The position numbers were made by a program, and so were the translations under genes. The notes under the pieces were generated by a model. It saw only the letters and a program-made list of their open reading frames with translations, was not told the DNA's origin and did not search any database. Shown one piece after another: positions 2,703-64,000 of a stretch of 64,000 nucleotides of DNA. Source of the stretch: Eledone cirrhosa (Eukaryota); contig OZ024745.1 in NCBI GenBank assembly GCA_964016885.1, positions 73,904,001 to 73,968,000 of the forward strand, written 5' to 3'. How positions within the stretch are numbered: the first letter of the stretch is position 1; each line of letters starts with the position of its first letter.

Positions 2703-3087
2703 AAACGGAAAAAATGAAACGAAATTTCATTTCCCACTCTTGGTACGGCTGTTACTTAAATATAAGTATGTACACGTACATACATATATGTATACAGACG
2801 TACAGTAGTATGTATATATATATACATACATGCACACATATATATATGTACGTATGGATTCACCGAACATTTATTATAATGCTCGGTGTGTTTGTAACCA
2901 AACATCCCGTATTAAGCCGTAGTGTCCAGAAACCATCGTTGCTCGTTTGTTCAACACTGACAAAGGAACGCTGTACTAGTTTCAAGCTTATTAGCTATCG
3001 TTAATATGCATAAGGTAAGTATATACGTTCAACAATCTAGCAGGACGGTATACGTTGCTGACGATAGCTAATAAGCTTGAAACTAGT
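2703..3087. mobile_element. Non-coding PLE pLTR-type element, family C (ACTAGT hammerhead), inverted arrangement
   Basis: 2703-3002 is the reverse complement of the 34660-35000 type sequence. 3011-3087 matches 34601-34685 and ends at GAAACTAGT. Confidence 0.75.
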
Positions 3088-3089
3088 TG

Positions 3090-3700
3090 GCATTTTGGCA
3101 TGTTGGTGGAATACAGATGGGCTCTTCCCATCTTGGAGTTTTCCCCAGTGTTCATTTATTCTTTCTCCTATGCTACGGACTATCTCACCTATGTAAGTTG
3201 TGTTCTTATCCCTACACTGTCTCCCAGTTTATCTTATGCTAATACCACATTCCTAATTTTACAGGCAGTTTGTGGGCTTAATTTGCAGGCTATGCATTTC
3301 CTATCAGTGCAGGGTTGTTTTAATAAGTATATCTTCTACTAATTAAGGCTTTATGGGGATACCTTGTCTTTCAACTATTTTAATATTTCATTTTAGTTTG
3401 TCTTGTGCCCTTCTAAATCTGTAAGCTAGTTCACCTGAGGAGAGCAACTACTGAGATGTAAACATTTCATTTTTAGAATTAAGATATTGATATGATGATT
3501 TCAGATCATGTATAGTTCTGAAATTTTCACTGGTACATAAAGCATTCTTCTTTGAACCGTTGATGTATAGACTGGAGCTTTCCAGAATTTTCCATTTTAT
3601 TGTATGGGGAATACCACTGACTTTCAATTGCCAGACCTGTTTTTCAAGAGCTTTAGGTGTTTTCCGCTCAGGATGTTTTGTCCTTTAGGATTCACATACT
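3090..3700 (-). pseudogene. Decayed PLE GIY-YIG endonuclease fragments (two pieces)
   Basis: Minus strand gives PCTDRKCIAC, CKIRNVV and TYIGEIVRSIGERINEH (3100-3330), plus IPHTIKWKILE and YINGSKKNALCTSE (3500-3620). Confidence 0.65.
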
Positions 3701-10246: not shown

Positions 10247-10312
10247 TATTTTATTATACGTATTTCAAGGGCAACCAAGGCAAATTATGGTGCGCTTTCA
10301 TCAGATAAAATA
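10247..10312 (-). ncRNA. Type I hammerhead ribozyme, family D
   Basis: TATTTTAT-CTGATGA-AAGCGCACCA..TGGTTGCCCTT-GAAA-TACGTA-TA-ATAAAATA, with an 8-bp stem I. Confidence 0.8.
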
Positions 10313-10399
10313 CAGATTTGTTTTATAAATAAATATTGACATACCCGTTAAGGTTGTCTTTTTCCGGGTATGTCAATATTTATTTATAAAACAAATCAG

Positions 10400-10465
10400 T
10401 ATTTTATCTGATGAAAGCGCACCATAATTTGCCTTGGTTGCCCTTGAAATATATATAATAAAATA
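10400..10465 (+). ncRNA. Type I hammerhead ribozyme, family D
   Basis: Same fold as 10247-10312, with stem III ATATATAT. Confidence 0.8.
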
Positions 10466-12331: not shown

Positions 12332-13740
12332 ACCTATGATCGAACCAGTTAAACCATGTGAGCAGCCCACCTATGTTCGAACCAGTTAAACCATGTGAGC
12401 AGCCCACCTATGTTCGAACCAGTTAAACCATGTGAGCAGCCCACCTATGATCGAACCAGTTAAACCATGTGAGCAGCCCACCTATGATCGAACCAGTTAG
12501 ACCATGTGAGCAGCCCACCTATGATCGAACCAGTTAAACCATGTGAGCAGCCCACCTATGTTCGAACCAGTTAAACCATGTGAGCAGCCCACCTATGTTC
12601 GAACCAGTTAAACCATGTGAGCAGCCCACCTATGATCGAACCAGTTAAACCATGTGAGCAGCCCACCTATGATCGAACCAGTTAAACCATGTGAGCAGCC
12701 CACCTATGATCGAACCAGTTAAACCATGTGAGCAGCCCACCTATGTTCGAACCAGTTAAACCATGTGAGCAGCCCACCTATGTTCGAACCAGTTAAACCA
12801 TGTGAGCAGCCCACCTATGATCGAACCAGTTAAACCATGTGAGCAGCCCACCTATGTTCGAACCAGTTAAACCATGTGAGCAGCCCACCTATGTTCGAAC
12901 CAGTTAAACCATGTGAGCAGCCCACCTATGTTCGAACCAGTTAAACCATGTGAGCAGCCCACCTATGTTCGAACCAGTTAAACCATGTGAGCAGCCCACC
13001 TATGTTCGAACCAGTTAAACCATGTGAGCAGCCCACCTATGTTCGAACCAGTTAAACCATGTGAGCAGCCCACCTATGTTCGAACCAGTTAAACCATGTG
13101 AGCAGCCCACCTATGTTCGAACCAGTTAAACCATGTGAGCAGCCCACCTATGTTCGAACCAGTTAAACCATGTGAGCAGCCCACCTATGATCGAACCAGT
13201 TAGATCATGTGAGCAGCCCACCTATGTTCGAACCAGTTAAACCATGTGAGCAGCCCACCTATGTTCGAACCAGTTAGATCATGTGAGCAGCCCACCTATG
13301 ATCGAACCAGTTAAACCATGTGAGCAGCCCACCTATGTTCGAACCAGTTAAACCATGTGAGCAGCCCACCTATGATCGAACCAGTTAAACCATGTGAGCA
13401 GCCCACCTATGTTCGAACCAGTTAAACCATGTGAGCAGCCCACCTATGTTCGAACCAGTTAGATCATGTGAGCAGCCCACCTATGATCGAACCAGTTAAA
13501 CCATGTGAGCAGCCCACCTATGATCGAACCAGTTAAACCATGTGAGCAGCACACCTATGTTCGAACCAGTTAAACCATGTGAGCAGCCCACCTATGATCG
13601 AACCAGTTAAACCATGTGAGCAGCCCACCTATGATCGAACCAGTTAAACCATGTGAGCAGCCCACCTATGATCGAACCAGTTAGATCATGTGAGCAGCCC
13701 ACCTATGTTCGAACCAGTTAAACCATGTAAGCAGCCCGCC
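12332..13740 (+). repeat. Homogeneous 37-bp minisatellite, about 38 copies (CACCTATGWTCGAACCAGTTAAACCATGTGAGCAGCC)
   Basis: Contiguous units with no spacers. Variants are A/T at position 9 and AAACC/AGATC. Confidence 0.97.
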
Positions 13741-13767
13741 TTTTTTCGTTAACATTTTAAATCATCT

Positions 13768-31810: not shown

Positions 31811-31876
31811 TATTTTATCTGATGAAAGCGCACCATAATTTGCCTTGGTGGCCCTTGAAATACGTATAATAAAATA
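31811..31876 (+). ncRNA. Type I hammerhead ribozyme, family D (element 31730-31919)
   Basis: TATTTTAT-CTGATGA-stem II-GAAA-TACGTA-TA-ATAAAATA. Confidence 0.8.
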
Positions 31877-32297
31877 AATATGGTTTTATAAATATAGTTT
31901 CCATTTATTAATATATTGTATATATATATATATATAGTTTTTTAATTTGTTTTTCAAGATTTCTTATCTGAAAATGTGTGTTGAAACTGATTTTGTTATA
32001 CTTTGGGAGGGGCATGCTGCCAGTAAAAACACACGCACCCGTTGGTTTTCACTTCAATTTATTATAAATTTCCGGTTGGTTGGTTGGTTGGTTCGATAAC
32101 CGGAAGGTTGTTTATATATTGTCAAAGCTCTTTCGTCACACATTCTGTGACCACCTCAATGCAAAAGGTACATTGCAAAATATCTCATCAGTAAACTTCT
32201 AAGGTTACTCACATCGCACCCAATTTTAGAAGAAAATACATTCGTCCAATACTTTATAATGTGTGCAGCAGAAATATATTTTTACTTTTATGAAATA

Positions 32298-34142: not shown

Positions 34143-35000
34143 TTATATGCATGTATACGTACATACATATATGTATACAGACGTACAGTAGCATGCACAT
34201 ATATATATATATATACATATATACATACATATGCATACAGGTACACATACATATATGCACGTATCAGTTTAGCGGCGCTTATTATAACGTCGCTTTGTTC
34301 GTTTGTAAACAAAGCGACGTTATAATAAGCGCCGCTAAACTGATACGTGCATATATGTATGTGTACCTGTATGCATATGTATGTATATATGTATATATAT
34401 ATATATATGTGCATGCTACTGTACGTCTGTATACATATATGTATGTACGTATACATGCATACTTACATTTAAGTAAGTGCCATACTAAGAGTGAGAAATG
34501 AAATTTCGTTTTCATTTTGTTTCAATTTATCGTTTTCGGTATGCCTGACCGATTTAACTCACTCAATATGCAAATTAGGCTGCTCAGCCGTTAATTTTCA
34601 TAAGGAAAGTATATACTTTCGAACGTTCAACTATCTGGCAGATGGGTAAACGGTGCTGATGATAGCTAACAAGCTTGAAACTAGTACATCGTTCCTGTGT
34701 CAGTGTTGAACAAAAAGGTGACGTGGTTGCCTTAACACCGTATGACATAAATTCAGGCTGTTCAGTTTGTTTACAAACGAACAAAGCGACGTTATAATAA
34801 GCGCCGCTAAACTGATACGTGCATATATGTATGTGTACCTGTATGCATATGTATGTATATATGTATATATATATATATATGTGCATGCTACTGTACGTCT
34901 GTATACATATATGTATGTACGTATACATGCATACTTACATTTAAGTAAGTGCCATACTAAGAGTGTGAAATGAAATTTCGTTTTCATTTTGTTTCAATTT
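34143..35000. mobile_element. Family C element: inverted arm plus partial tandem of two forward copies
   Basis: Palindrome centred near 34304. Forward copies at 34305-34527 and about 34590-35000. Confidence 0.85.
34649..34693 (+). ncRNA. Type I hammerhead ribozyme, family C
   Basis: AACGGTG-CTGATGA-TAGC-TAACAA-GCTT-GAAA-CTAG-TA-CATCGTT, GUA site. Confidence 0.85.
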
Positions 35001-36689: not shown

Positions 36690-36781
36690 ACATATTACAT
36701 ATGTTTCACTGTCGATCAGCTCGAGGAACGATCTATTAATCATCGAACCTGTCTCTGGAATCGGAAGCTCCTCAGATATGT
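36690..36781 (-). ncRNA. Type I hammerhead with long stem-loop II
   Basis: ACATAT-CTGAGGA-GCTTCCGATT...GATCGACAGT-GAAA-CATATG-TA-ATATGT. Confidence 0.65.
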
Positions 36782-37393
36782 TTTAATGTACGGGCTCGCA
36801 TCTGAGACTATGAATATTCTCCGAACTTCTTCTAAGTTAGCACACATTCTAACATAGTGGTATTCAGCCGTATATGCTCATATATATTCGGTCAGATAAT
36901 GGCGGGGTCTCTTTATAAATTAGCGGTTATATTTCCCATCCCGGTCAAATCGTCCCGTGCATCCATGCGCGTCGACCCGTCTGCCTAGCTCCACTGTCAT
37001 ATTGTTTGAAGTCATCATTAAGGAGATAAAGCAATACGAGAATGCGTTGGTGGTGAAAAGTAAGGGATGTGGGAGTTAAGATATAGAATATAAAATAAAG
37101 GAATTACAAAAAAATAAAACTATGTGGTAAGTGGCAAACTGACTACGATATAGCTGATAATGACATAAAATAAAACAAAAAAAGTGGAACAATATATTAT
37201 AGACATAGTAAAAACAAAACCTATACAAATATACATATATATGTGTGCGTACACATATATACATACACATACATACGCACATACTTACCCTTACACATAT
37301 ATATACACACTCACATATATACAAACACGTATATACACATACATATATCTCTATATCTCTATCTATCTACCTATCTATCTATCTATCTATCTA

Positions 37394-37426
<33 letters not shown>

Positions 37427-37430
<4 letters not shown>

Positions 37431-37903
37431 ATTAGAGTTAAAACTCAATTGGAACCCTGTAACTATTAAGCTCAAAGTATAAATACTGAGCCGATTAATA
37501 ATATATAGTAAGAAACACAGTAAACCGTGTGTCTAAAATTACAAGGGTTGAAAAACCACATTTGTTTCAAATATTTAACCAAGAAGCAGACAGAATGATA
37601 AAATATACAAACCGCCTCAATAACCATTATATCTCTCGGACAGATTATCCCTAATCTGTTTCGCCCTGAGTGTGTTTGTAGCAGATAATCCTGGCTTCAT
37701 CAGCGAGAGAATCTGATTAAATGCCACAAACACTATTTGCCAACGTTCACACAGAAAGATGAATTTGTCACCTCGTGCGCTGCTAGTCAAACGTGGTAAG
37801 CGTGTATTGAATAGAAATAACAGTCCAACACACACAACTTAATAAGCTCAACTTGTGAGGGAGCAGAAATATATATGAAAATTAGAGTTAAAACTCAATT
37901 GAA

Positions 37904-37908
<5 letters not shown>
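37427..37908 (-). mobile_element. 450-bp retrozyme-like unit with a 32-bp terminal direct repeat, inserted in (TA)n
   Basis: GAAAATTAGAGTTAAAACTCAATTGRAACCCT occurs at 37427 and 37877. Central HHR and no ORF. Confidence 0.75.
37632..37710 (-). ncRNA. Canonical type I hammerhead ribozyme (stable stem III, GUC site)
   Basis: TCTCTCG-CTGATGA-A-GCC...GGC-GAAA-CAGATTA-GGGA-TAATCTG-TC-CGAGAGA. Confidence 0.9.
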
Positions 37909-37967
<59 letters not shown>

Positions 37968-38542
37968 GCCCCACAAACATATTGATAAATATTCACTATC
38001 CGACCCACATACACACACCCCGCTACCCCTACATACACAGCTGCCCGCATACATACACACACGACCCCATGTGGACGCATACATACGTACAAACACGGGT
38101 GGTGCCTGCCTCTATTGTTCGCATGCACCAACAACTCGTTAAGTTCCTATCCGGGAAAATTCAGCGCCGAAAAAGTGCAATTCCAGTGGTGCCTGCAAGC
38201 CCTGATGATCTCGGACTTGAGGTCAATCGAATTATGTTTGCAACGGACATCGCCCATGGAATATGCAGCCGAGTGTTGCACTATGCCCCAGTGCGGCTTG
38301 AAGTCCATGCTGCTGTCTTTTACCGTCCAGATTAAGTACACCTGTCTAGTGGAGTGTCTCTTAGTCCGGTCCTTGAACGAGTTCGTGTGGTTATACATCC
38401 TCGACTTATATATATGTACTGGAATTTCGTATTTCTAAAGAAATACGGTATGTTTATAAATAAACATTTAGAAAGCCGTGGCTATGCAAAGACACTGGCA
38501 GCTATCGCCACCAGGCGGTGTCCAACAGAAGCAAGACGGACA

Positions 38543-38586
38543 ATCGTCGATGCATTTCGAACTGAACTGGTTCTCATCAGGTCGAC
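38543..38586 (-). ncRNA. Minimal type I hammerhead ribozyme
   Basis: GTCGAC-CTGATGA-GAAC-CAGTTCA-GTTC-GAAA-TGCA-TC-GACGAT, AUC site. Confidence 0.88.
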
Positions 38587-38624
38587 CCGTTCCGCTCTTG
38601 CAACAGCTGCACTTTGAAAACAGG

Positions 38625-38688
38625 CGAGAATATATAGTTTTCTCGTCTGTGTAAATGAGGTGATTAATCTCATTTGCATATGAAGCTG
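38625..38688 (-). promoter_or_regulatory. Putative snRNA-type promoter block (octamer, PSE-like, TATA)
   Basis: 64 bp identical to 59007-59070: ATGCAAAT, TCACCTCATTTACA and TATATA, upstream of the HHR. Function is inferred. Confidence 0.5.
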
Positions 38689-38949
38689 TATAGCTGTATA
38701 GGTTGGCTCAACTTATAATACAATAGAAATAGAATTTAGCTTCGTATTAGAATTTCGTATTTTTTAAAGAAATACGGTATGTTTATAATTAGACACTTAG
38801 AAAGCCGTAGCTATGCAAAACACCGGCAGCTATTGCCACCTGGTGGTGTCCAGCAGAAGCAAGGAGGGAAATCGTCCTTTCTAAATGTTTATTTATAAAT
38901 TGTTGTAAAATCCCATTTTGCATACTTATTCTTCACTATATATATATAT

Positions 38950-59859: not shown

Positions 59860-60452
59860 ATGAGGCATCCGTCAACCCCTGCCCTCTATCTTCCCTGCAC
59901 GCCGTCGACCCACTGCATCGTTGTGCATCACGATGCGCATCTCTGCCCTGTCAGCCGCAATTCATTCCCCGACCCTTTCCATTGCCTACCCGCCGTGATC
60001 GCTAAGGACTGCCACGGCTCAACATGCCGAATCCCTGCCACCGTCCACCCCTGCCCATTTCCATTGCCTACACTCCATGACAGCTCAAGACTTCCATGCC
60101 TGACCAAGCCGCATCCCTTCCACCTTCAACACCTGCCCTCTCCCTTCCCTGCACGCCGTCGTCCCACTGCATCGTCATGCCTCACCATGCCGTCTTACTG
60201 CCCTGTTGGCCACCATGCCCTCCCCTGCCCTCTCCCTTACCCGCACGCCTTGGTCCTTCACGAGTGCCATGGTTCACCATGCGGAATCCCTGCAACTGTC
60301 AATCCTGGCCATCTCGCTTCCCTGCACGCCGTCGAACCATCGAATCGTTATGCCTCACCATGCCGCATCCATGATCTGTCAGCCGCCATCCCCTCCTCAG
60401 CCCTTTATTTTGCCTGCCCGCCGTGCTCCTTCAAGACTGCCATGCCACCCAG
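59860..60452 (+). repeat. Degenerate C-rich tandem repeat (CCTGCACGCCGTCG...ATGCCTCACCATGCCG)
   Basis: The motif recurs near 59894, 60148 and 60321. Confidence 0.65.
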
Positions 60453-63400
60453 CCCCAAATAAAAAAACTGTCCAGCCCCCACCCCACCCCCAAATAAAAA
60501 AACGGACCCCCACCCATCCCCCAAATAAAAAACGGGCCCCCTCCATCCCACCCCCCAAATAAAATACGGATCCCACCCCCACCCCCAAATAAAAAACGGA
60601 CCCACAAATAAAAAACGGACTCCCCAAATAAAAAACGGATCCCCCCAAATAAAAACCGCATCCCACCACGCCCGCCCAAATAAATAACGTACCCCCCAAA
60701 ACGGACCCTCCCACCCCACCCCCAAATAAAAAACGGAGCCCCAAATAAAATACGGACACTCCCTAATAAAAAACGGATCCCCCTAAATGAAAGAACGGAC
60801 CCCTTACCCCAAAATATAAAACGGACCCCCAAATAAAAAACGTACACCCACCCCACCCCCAAATAAAAAAACGTACCCCCACCCCACCACCAAATAAAAA
60901 ACGGACCCCCAAATAAAAAAACGGATCCGCCCAAATAAACAACAGACCCCCACCCCCAAATAAAAAAACGACACCTCCACCCAAATAAAAAACGGACCCC
61001 CACCCCCAAATAAAAAACGGACACCCCAAATAAAGAAACGGACCACTCACACCCGAATAAAAAACGGACAACCCCCACCCCCAAATAAAAAACGGATCCC
61101 TCACCCTACCCCCAAAGAAAAAAACGTACCCCCAAATAAAAAAGGACCCCCACCCCACCTCCAAATAGAAAACGGACCCCCAAATAAAAAACCGGAGGCC
61201 CACCCCATCCCCAAATAAAAAAATTGACGACACCCCACCCCATACCCAAATGAAAAACGGGCCCCCAAATAAAAAACGGATCACCCATTGGAGGGATCCA
61301 TTTTTTATTTGGAGATATCCATTTTTTATTTGGGTGATTCATTTTTTTATCGGGGTATTCGTTTTTTATTGAGGGGTCTGTTTTTTATTTGAGTGTGGGG
61401 GTAAAACATGGATCCCCTCAATAAAAAACGGAATACCCCGATAAAAAAAAATGGAACACCCAAATAAAAAATGGATCACCCAAATAAAAAATGGATCCCT
61501 CCAAGTAAAAAATGGACCCCACCCAATAAAAAATGGATCCTCTCGATAAAAAACGGAATACCTCTATAAAAAAATGGATCACCCAAATAAAAAATGGATC
61601 CCTCCAATAAAAAAAATGGATCACCCAAATAAAAATGGATCACGCAAATAAAAAATGGATCACATGAATAAAAATTGGATCAACCAAATAAAAAATGGAT
61701 CACCCAAATAAAAAATGGATCCCTCCAAATAAAAAAACGGACCCCACCCAAAAAAACATGGATCCCCTCAATAAAAAACGGAATACCCCGATAAAAAAAA
61801 TGGATCACCCAAATAAAAAATGGATCACCCAATTAAAAAATGGATCACCCAAATAAAATATGGATCACCAAAATAAAAAATGGATCACCCAAATAAAAAA
61901 AAAGATCACTCAAATAAAAAACGGACCCCACCCCCATATAAAAAACAGGTCCGCCCCCCCCAAAACGTACGACCAAATAAAAAACGTACCCCCCACCCCA
62001 CCTCCAAATAGAAAACGGACCCCCAAATAAAAAACCGGACGCCCACCCCATCCCCAAATAAAAAAATGAACGACCCACAACCCCACACCCAAATGAAAAA
62101 CGGATCCCCCAAATAAAAAACGGACGCCCCCACACCCAAATAAAACACAGACCCTCCCATCCCCAAATAAAAAAACGGACCCCCCACACCCAAATAAAAA
62201 ACAGACCCTCCCATCCCCAAATAAAAAACGGATCCCCCAAATAAAAAACGGATCCCCAAATAAAAAACGGACACCCCACTCCCAAATGAATAACGGACCC
62301 CCAATGAAAAACGTACCCCCCCAATAAAAAACGGACCACCTCTGCCCACCCATAAATAAAAACGGACCCACACGACCCACCCAAATAAAAAAAACGGTCC
62401 ACCCCTCTCTACCCATAAATAAAAAAACGTTTCTTTTTTGAGGATGGGGGATCCGTTTTTTTATTTGGAGGGATCCGTTTTTTATTTGTGGAGGGGAGTC
62501 CGTTTTTTATTTGGGGTTGGGGTGGGGTCTGATTTTTATTTTCGGGGATCCGTTTTTTATTTGGGGGGATCCGTTTATCATTTGGAGGTCGGTTTTTTAT
62601 TTGGCGATGGGGTGTCCGTTTTTCATTTGGGTGTGGGATGGGTGTGATCCATTTTTTTATTTTGGGATGGGGTGGGGTGTCCGGATTTTGGGGGTCCGTT
62701 TTTTATTTATGGGTGGGGTGGTGCGTTTTTTATTTTGGGGGGTTCCGTTTTTTATTTGGTGGTGGGCTGTCCATTTTTTTTTTGGGGGGGGGGGGGGGTA
62801 CGTATTTTATTTGGGTGTGTGGTGGGGTGGTTCGTTTTTTATTTGGGGGTGTCCGTTTTTTATTTTGGGGTGGGGTGGGGGGTTCGTTTTTATTTGGGGG
62901 TGGGGTGGGGGCATCCATTCTTTTCATTTGGGGTTGAGGAGGTCCGTTTTTTATTTAGGGGGATCCGTTTTTTATTTGGGGGTCCGTTTTTTATTTGGGG
63001 GTACGATTTTATTTGGGGAGGGTGGGGGATCCGGTTTTTATTTGGGGGACCGTTTTTTATTTGGTGGTGGGGGTCCGTTTATTATTTGGAGTGGGTTGGG
63101 GGGTACGTATTTTATTTGGGGGGTTCCGTTTTTTATTTTACGTAACCCCCACCCTCCCCAAATAAAAAACCATTCGCCCAAAACAAAAAACGGACCCTCA
63201 ACGCCCCACACCCCAAATAAAAAACGGACACCCAAATAAAAAACGGACCCCCACCCCACCCCAAATAAAAAAACGGATCACCCCACCCCACCCCAAAGAA
63301 AAAACGTACCCCCCAAATAAAATACGGACTCTCCAAATAAAAAACGGAAGCCTCCACACCCTAATAAAAAACAGACCCTCCCATGCCCAAATAAAAAAAC

Positions 63401-63855
63401 CGACCCCCCCACCCCACCCCCAAATAAAAACGGACACCCCAAATAAAAAACGGACACCCCACACCCAAATAAAAAACAGACCCTCCCATCCCCAAATAAA
63501 AAACGGATCCCCCAATTAAAAAACTGACCTCCAAATGAAAAACGGACCCCCAATAAAAAAACGAACCCCCCAAATAAAAAAACGGACCACCCCTCTCCAC
63601 CCATAAAGAAAAAACGGACCCACACCACCCACCCGCCCAAATAAAGAAACGGAACACCAAATAAAAAACGTATCACCCCAAATAGCAAACGGACGCCCCC
63701 ACATCCAAAGAAAAAAACGTACCCCCAATTAAAAAATGGACCCCCAAATATAAAACGGATTCCTCCAAATAAAAAACGGGTCCCCCACACTCAAATAAAA
63801 AAACACACCCTCCCATCCCCAAATAAAAAACGGACACCCCATCACACCCCCAAAT
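60453..63855. repeat. About 3.4-kb variable minisatellite CCCAAATAAAAAACGGA(C)n with inverted blocks
   Basis: Orientation flips at about 61287-61402 and 62430-63140. An AAATGGATCACCC sub-array spans 61460-61910. Confidence 0.95.
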
Positions 63856-64000
63856 CACCCTGCTTTAAAAATCAACTGAAAATTCAATTTCAAGTGAATT
63901 TGACTTCCGTCAGTCGTACGAAGAACAATTTCAACGATACACTGTGTACCTACAATTGATCCATTATTTATGCTCAATTACACACTTGCTCTACTAACCT

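Follow-up and report, generated by a model that had tools for sequence, protein, structure and literature searches.

In the available text of the two main accounts (PMC7229834; bioRxiv 10.64898/2026.07.22.740005), metazoan non-LTR retrozymes are non-coding, AT-rich tandem units with one type I hammerhead, which occur as monomers to multimers, have no LTR, show highly paired predicted circles and indel size variants, and coexist with PLEs bearing minimal hammerheads. The element analysed here, found in a 64,000-nt window of the Eledone cirrhosa genome, resembles them in all these respects. PLEs have been proposed as retrozyme helpers from co-occurrence and pLTR similarity, and circles have been proposed as the templates (PMC7229834; bioRxiv 10.64898/2026.07.22.740005), and the preprint, in the part available, states that the precise mechanisms remain to be worked out (bioRxiv 10.64898/2026.07.22.740005). 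Units of 448-485 nt were found here, longer than the 170-400 nt of PMC7229834 but within the 51-972 bp of the preprint. Unlike other metazoan retrozymes in the portions consulted, the element has an 8-bp stem III and a loop II of about 26 nt with a 12-bp upstream complement, its ribozyme is predicted to be self-blocked in the circle (unusual for metazoan retrozymes according to PMC7229834), it has no homology to the pLTR of its apparent helper, and that helper is seen in chimeric insertions, whereas the helpers of metazoan retrozymes were inferred from co-occurrence.

Neptune-type PLEs, as far as the sources at hand describe them, share with the element partial tandems, an inverted 5' arm, a tail on only one arm, two internal start sites, and microsatellite targeting (PMC8557442, PMC3846280, PMC11167929). 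Unlike PLEs, the retrozyme lacks an ORF and its hammerhead is full, not minimal, and its tail measures about 72 nt and that of the local Neptune 60 nt, where the same excerpts report 30-40 bp for PLEs. Both putative start sites here lie at AU patches that might pair with cut (TA)n, while the anole element starts without target homology (PMC11167929). The non-autonomous Chlamys elements, e.g., MRC1, are also non-coding PLE dependants with pLTRs and head-to-tail multimers, but in the sections available they generally share 3' sequence with their autonomous family, unlike here, and most are without canonical hammerheads, whereas a full hammerhead is present here (PMC8557442). The hammerhead role in PLEs is stated there to be unclear (PMC8557442).

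The features of the window copy are as follows.

37350-37426, flank on the target side at the 3' end: (TCTA)n(TA)n
37419-37427, minus strand: 3' end site A (unit 450), where the unit passes into (TA)n; putative reverse-transcription start
37427-37876, minus strand: full 450-nt retrozyme unit (unit position 1 = 37876, position 450 = 37427)
37496-37507, minus strand: 3' end site B (unit 376-381), an internal TATATAT patch; putative second start site
37509-37519, minus strand: 11-nt word that the Neptune family also has, shortly upstream of the first start site
37621-37719, minus strand: predicted 6-bp extension of stem I beyond an internal loop (37719-37714 with 37626-37621), read from the sequence
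37632-37710, minus strand (37710-37632): type I hammerhead from the descriptor scan of the window; predicted cut 37639/37638
37710-37704/37638-37632, minus strand: hammerhead stem I, 7 bp
37703-37697, minus strand: hammerhead core CUGAUGA
37696, minus strand: extra hammerhead nucleotide, A in the window copy, A or U among copies
37695-37693/37665-37663, minus strand: hammerhead stem II, 3 bp in the window copy
37662-37659, minus strand: hammerhead GAAA
37659-37652/37647-37640, minus strand: hammerhead stem III, 8 bp, GGGA loop, then GUC
37672-37733, minus strand: 12-bp complement, 37733-37722 (upstream of stem I) with 37683-37672 (loop II)
37877-37911, minus strand: 5'-truncated start of a second round (unit 416-450)
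37908-37955, at the 5' end: (TA)24 flank; no target-site duplication readable

Several claims of the preliminary description were borne out at this copy: the direct repeats of 32 bp at 450-bp spacing are present (31/32 identical), (TA)n lies on both sides, and the unit contains no stop-to-stop frame of at least 130 aa. Inside the tandem, site A is followed by ATATATAT (37876-37869), into which the repeat extends on one side. The repeat arises because the start of the second round is 5'-truncated; it was rejected as a terminal repeat or TSD, being simply where copying ended after 1.07 units. The 32-bp terminal redundancy is not a fixed feature, the 5' overhang of other copies ranging from none to several units. 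The window copy would represent a one-armed product that started at site A and stopped after 1.07 rounds, 35 nt into the second; site B is not an end in this copy.

The 7-bp stem I, the core with its extra A, the 8-bp stem III with the GGGA loop, and the GUC site at 37639/37638 were all recovered by the descriptor scan. With the core CUGANGA/GAAA/UH, stems I-III, an open stem I, and an extra nucleotide after A9, the motif belongs to the type I hammerheads, and the strict descriptor (stem I at least 6, II at least 3, III at least 6) gave one match in the real window and none in 100 block-shuffled windows. An Rfam search of the window and the element returned no hammerhead model at E<=10, only microsatellite-driven miRNA noise. 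Stem II of the family is usually a 4-bp GCCC/GGGC helix, and a single identical ribozyme sequence with this stem occurs in 40 of 79 hammerhead copies; the window copy alone among the 79 has the GCC form, having lost one C and hence one pair. The proposed extension of stem II by tandem G.A pairs was rejected, as it arises from this private deletion. In folds of the isolated motif, the stem II probability is 0.08 in the window copy, 0.18 in the L064 variant, and 0.98 in L002 and L062, and all three stems of the common form reach 0.94-0.98. The expectation that this hammerhead, unlike the others in the window, folds as a monomer agrees with the short palindromic stem III of every one of the 10 further window hammerheads in the descriptor scan and with the prediction for the common form, but is weakened for the window copy itself. 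Self-cleavage of the family RNA at the GUC site is predicted from these sequences.

The stem I extension is paired in 97.6% of cells across 28 units, and the 12-bp complement is 96.7% paired, with one G.U pair broken in 7 of the 28 units; neither shows compensatory changes. The complement may be either a pseudoknot joining stems I and II or a hairpin turning the ribozyme off. In pseudoknot-stabilised hammerheads, as far as the available text goes, pairing between loop II and sequence close to stem I could stand in for the loop-loop contact (Perreault et al. 2011, PMC3088659), and a similar role is conceivable here, but unlike in those hammerheads the helix is 12 bp and, as modelled, equally able to form an inhibitory hairpin. 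When at least 40 nt of upstream sequence was added in nested folding, the ribozyme was disrupted and the probability of stems I and II fell to about 0 in 3 of 4 units; the complement is predicted to block the ribozyme in such folds, from a program that cannot represent pseudoknots. The circularised unit, whose folding the preliminary description had proposed as a check, is indeed predicted to be highly paired (60-67%; z -4.4 and -6.1 against 30 shuffles); its ribozyme is disrupted in the nested fold, and forcing the ribozyme there costs 1.5-13 kcal/mol in the nested-fold model. When the window unit is folded as a circle, most of site B stays unpaired, and the fold from the alignment leaves it unpaired as well.

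The 3.0-Gb genome yielded 1743 candidates at first look, 40 of them scored. For the 24-mer that follows the cut there are 343 exact matches genome-wide, a count that stands in for the number of whole intact ribozymes, and the element is a dispersed, protein-free repeat of several hundred copies. Loci were drawn from four DNA searches, the seven loci lacking the C before the cut, and every one not already included of the first 100 listed 24-mer places; 135 rows gave 131 insertions after four copies within larger duplications were dropped, and a few of the 131, split by nested sequence, count twice. In one case (G000:C1:217.43-217.66 Mb), a larger block that has been duplicated contains the same retrozyme insertion in four places, at spacings of 30-110 kb. 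Tandem periods of 68 full units give the length range of 448-485 nt, in several subfamilies. At least two complete ribozyme regions on the same strand occur in 18 of the 131 insertions; arrays include L161, with 5.6 units, and L062, with about 7 in total, five of them identical and a sixth with 2 changes. Searches of viral and metagenome contigs for relatives gave 0 matches in each. Judged by its DNA, the element, a short non-coding unit with a type I hammerhead in dispersed and tandem form, meets the definition of a non-LTR retrozyme. An LTR/PBS/PPT architecture is absent, as judged by the variable repeat length and the ends running into (TA)n, and the type I topology does not agree with plant LTR retrozymes, which carry a type III hammerhead in LTRs and a 4-bp TSD.

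Of 188 outer 3' ends, 175 map to either of two fixed sites separated by about 72 nt, with 92 at site A (unit 450 or the equivalent in a shorter-ended subfamily; 66 plus 26 in the second subfamily), 83 at site B (unit 376-381), and 13 elsewhere. Almost all enter (TA)n, and TATA-like internal patches adjoin both sites. The 5' breakpoints, by contrast, are scattered over 115 different values among 194. Apparent breakpoint clusters at unit 272/273 and 394 proved to be alignment splits at subfamily indels, not true ends, and that at unit position 1 reflects TA microhomology. Since the 3' ends lie at two fixed sites, the copies are not free permutations. Of the earlier suggestion of a circularly permuted copy of a circular RNA, what stands is a unit of about 450 nt copied for more than one round, with a circle favoured; among the copies, only the 5' ends vary. 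The real tail of the family is the stretch of about 72 nt between the start sites, not the 32-bp repeat. Both ends lie at A or B in 48 of 57 tail-out inverted insertions, and 47 of these 48 pair A with B, against 50% expected (p 2e-13); an extra B+B case at L062, split by a nested element, would give 47/49. Two fixed 3' ends, 5' truncation, an inverted arm, and a microsatellite target together constitute a PLE-type insertion.

A partner of this type was caught in chimeric insertions. At L011/L061, a retrozyme 5' breakpoint is joined head to head, with AA microhomology, to a 5'-truncated PLE ending in (TA)n, which has 624 open codons with RT, a CX4CX2C linker, and a GIY-YIG-like end. At L047 and L149, Neptune gives way to the retrozyme on the same strand, the Neptune at L149 being a second family, about 69% identical. 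Clear retrozyme-Neptune chimeras, with no TA tract at the joint, amount to 3 of 131 insertions, a count that leaves out plain neighbourhood within one TA tract, which is common. L212 and L180 were not accepted and are left ambiguous because of a TA run at the joint. The chimeras involve two Neptune families, and the A+B rule is not followed across elements. The layout of RT, linker, and GIY-YIG is that of Neptune/Nematis in the available text of PMC8557442. The translations of L118 (G000:C3:324435000-324444500) contain an RT, a CX2-5CxxC linker, plus GIY-YIG at the C terminus, in a 1274-aa open frame (6018-2194, minus strand) with a long Asn/Thr/His-rich insert. The full Neptune protein had no Pfam match, and by domain order and motif only, the partner would be placed in the Neptune clade; Nematis has a related linker.

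The Neptune partner family is young, the best 40 copies among 2017 candidates being 99-100% identical. It carries a minimal hammerhead, and its ends, in (TA)n, are fixed at two sites separated by 60 nt: 26 of the 29 rows shown lie at or within a few nt of these two sites or read on into the ORF, and each of the five tail-out Neptune insertions inspected has one end of each kind. The only sequence that the retrozyme and this family have in common is an 11-mer (BLAST E 0.89), seen in 3 of 1500 shuffles with windows chosen after the fact, and it is a weak candidate for a recognition signal. The retrozyme is very probably mobilised by PLE machinery, and there is good reason to think that the helper is Neptune.

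Whether the ribozyme matters to the element was assessed from 36 units picked only by the downstream 24-mer, with the 24-mer sites excluded. Variants common to at least three copies occupy 0 of 42 core and stem sites and 62 of 385 others (p 0.001), and 1/42 and 86/385 when all 68 units are compared. Private changes occur at broadly similar rates in the ribozyme and elsewhere (core and stems vs others, 0.29 vs 0.48 per site; 0.29 vs 0.32 at the 2-copy threshold). The pattern indicates, at the level of sequence comparison, that the ribozyme is under selection in the replicating lineage, and as inherited variants avoid it, the ribozyme appears to matter for spread. The hammerhead helices are 98% paired with 0 compensatory changes, the covariation score does not beat shuffles, and the whole unit has one compensatory pair in 124.

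It seems on balance likely that the retrozyme RNA self-cleaves, probably circularises, and is probably copied into (TA)n by a Neptune-type RT/GIY-YIG protein acting in trans. From the dispersed copies, two 3' ends, scattered 5' ends, tandem and tail-out forms, chimeras, and selection read in the DNA, we infer five steps. A tandem or partial-tandem copy would be transcribed and cut to unit length; the monomer would be ligated into a circle by a host ligase, by analogy with the system described in the accessible part of PMC7229834; the Neptune protein would cut both strands of (TA)n; and each DNA end would prime on the same RNA at either of a pair of single-stranded AU patches, which are separated by about 72 nt. 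The enzyme would then pass the ribozyme site and run for a variable distance, up to about seven rounds, and two cDNAs would be joined head to head, or one joined to the target. A more detailed version, in which a viroid-like circle has AU patches mimicking Neptune start sites, one enzyme dimer primes both ends of a cut (TA)n from a single circle, and the 12-bp helix of loop II switches the ribozyme between active and locked, is tentative and stands below an even chance. If it holds, a viroid-like RNA unrelated to the pLTR of its helper rolls through the religated ribozyme site, and this would be the first matched intact helper-retrozyme pair for in vitro rolling-circle retrotransposition.

The element is real and of an ordinary kind, and the mechanistic evidence is better than usual. 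It offers genomic support in three forms: a helper family that can be named, has an open frame and was found in chimeric insertions; evidence from selection for a role of the ribozyme in spread; and start sites that are paired almost strictly, one on each of the opposite arms. In the literature examined, of which the main texts are covered in part and the supplements may hold cases, neither chimeras of retrozyme and PLE nor paired retrozyme start sites are reported.

The template is probably circular. Copies made from a cut linear monomer would end at the cut and be no longer than about 140 or 210 nt. No 5' breakpoint lies at unit 236-242, where the cut is (0/194; about 3 expected if uniform), in a set most of whose loci were chosen in ways favouring ribozyme-bearing copies, and in a less biased locus set 17 of 20 run across the cut site. 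Genome-wide, the C that should precede the cut is missing in 7 of the 343 24-mers; all seven continue upstream and none starts at the cut, a test that would miss junctions supplying C by chance. Pieces within one insertion differ at diagnostic sites in 19/1243 (tandem) and 5/652 (inverted) comparisons, against 31.6% between insertions, which points to one template per insertion. The lack of a copy starting at the cut, together with arrays of up to about seven near-identical units, favours a circle, and a religated circle explains the agreement within insertions together with selection on cleavage. Identical copy structures would be expected from a tandem transcript that is homogeneous and uncut. 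With the same element and helper, the template could be such an uncut linear transcript, the ribozyme being mostly held off by the 12-bp helix and serving another step, e.g., trimming read-through transcripts. The predicted blocking fold agrees with this, homogeneous arrays would yield homogeneous daughters, and it is reported that uncut RNA is the main substrate of the anole PLE in vitro, where hammerhead mutants still inserted (PMC11167929). Against the predicted cleavage, only one of nine predicted retrozymes in Xenopus cleaved, according to the part available (bioRxiv 2026.07.22.740005). Against an uncut template stand the avoidance of the ribozyme by inherited variants and the absence, among 74 5' flanks, of a shared unique 5' flank from a master locus; four flank pairs appear to consist of simple repeat or of indel sequence belonging to the element, although not every pair was inspected, and L161 and L062 would need another source of growth. 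This alternative is considered unlikely, roughly a one-in-several prospect, and the choice between circle and linear transcript is open to a simple biochemical test.

Much less probable is a solo pseudo-LTR with the tail of an autonomous PLE lying outside the sample, as the preliminary description had also suggested. The PLE signature is complete (two ends, inverted arm, partial tandems), 131 insertions were read out of several hundred or more, and in the available part of the Xenopus study 24 of the 57 retrozyme families correspond to known TEs, almost exclusively to the termini of PLEs (bioRxiv 2026.07.22.740005). Yet none of the 74 outer 5' ends enters a Neptune or Hydra-like ORF in the same sense, none of the 100 listed 24-mer places on contigs C1-C2, all of which were read, is ORF-linked in the same sense, and past site A the unit simply begins again, with 56 exact junctions of this kind genome-wide. 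The unit and the Neptune pLTR are dissimilar (best BLAST E 0.07), and the tail is not the one envisaged. In an ordinary pLTR, all copies had been expected to share the same ends and abut a PLE ORF; the 5' ends read here vary, and none of the 74 outer ones reaches such an ORF in the same sense. An ancestral pLTR origin of the retrozyme is possible. A Hydra-like GIY-YIG remnant at 38410-38171 was rejected as the parent ORF, as it lies about 260 bp off, beyond the (TA)24, and its flank is in no other copy.

It is slightly more doubtful still that some other retroelement serves as the helper, whether a LINE or a PLE of another clade, and that the Neptune junctions merely reflect one insertion nested in another at (TA)n targets common to both. 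Neptune ends do lie unjoined in the same TA tract at L014, L045, L052, L056, L059, L087, and L161, and only 11 nt are held in common with Neptune; other PLE families, such as the Hydra-like fragments in the window, are possible helpers. However, the three junctions free of a TA tract join truncated Neptune to truncated retrozyme tail-out, two of them continuing on the same strand, and the two-site tail is, according to PMC11167929, a peculiarity of PLEs. Satellite or rolling-circle amplification at the DNA level, in which the hammerhead would be incidental and which the near-identical tandem units of L062 might recall, is hardly credible given 3' ends that are fixed and strand-polar, 5' ends truncated at random, the inverted arms, and the selection acting on the ribozyme.

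The neighbourhood of the window copy holds ten minimal hammerheads with palindromic stem III, of several families, and a number of PLE ORF fragments, some of which we take to be Hydra-like from their motifs.

10247-10465, 26665-26832, 31811-31876, 34649-34693: minimal hammerheads
36690-36781, 54671-54725, 57370-57424, 59106-59155: minimal hammerheads
22643-24235, 45373-45921, 55482-56084, 3067-3435, 31938-32161: PLE ORF fragments, Hydra-like and Neptune-like

Two of the minimal hammerheads form inverted pairs, like the tail-out insertions of the retrozyme, and the Hydra-like PLE fragment at 23-24 kb has a tail-out inverted form. A 328-bp direct repeat at 38171-38900 on the minus strand has a degenerate minimal hammerhead near 38580 and adjoins the Hydra-like GIY-YIG remnant; a related copy lies at 58836-59153. 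Outside the window, L061 8600-9500 carries a 422-bp tandem with three minimal hammerheads, similar to that at window 34649, a second retrozyme-like family, and L062 4815-6330 is a separate element that repeats in tandem every 567 bp, has an inverted arm, and sits in a TA run within a retrozyme insertion; it gave no hammerhead core and no Rfam ribozyme match. The window also contains a 37-bp minisatellite of 38 copies with 97% matches (12332-13748) and a long degenerate region of repeats of about 20 nt (60445-64000).
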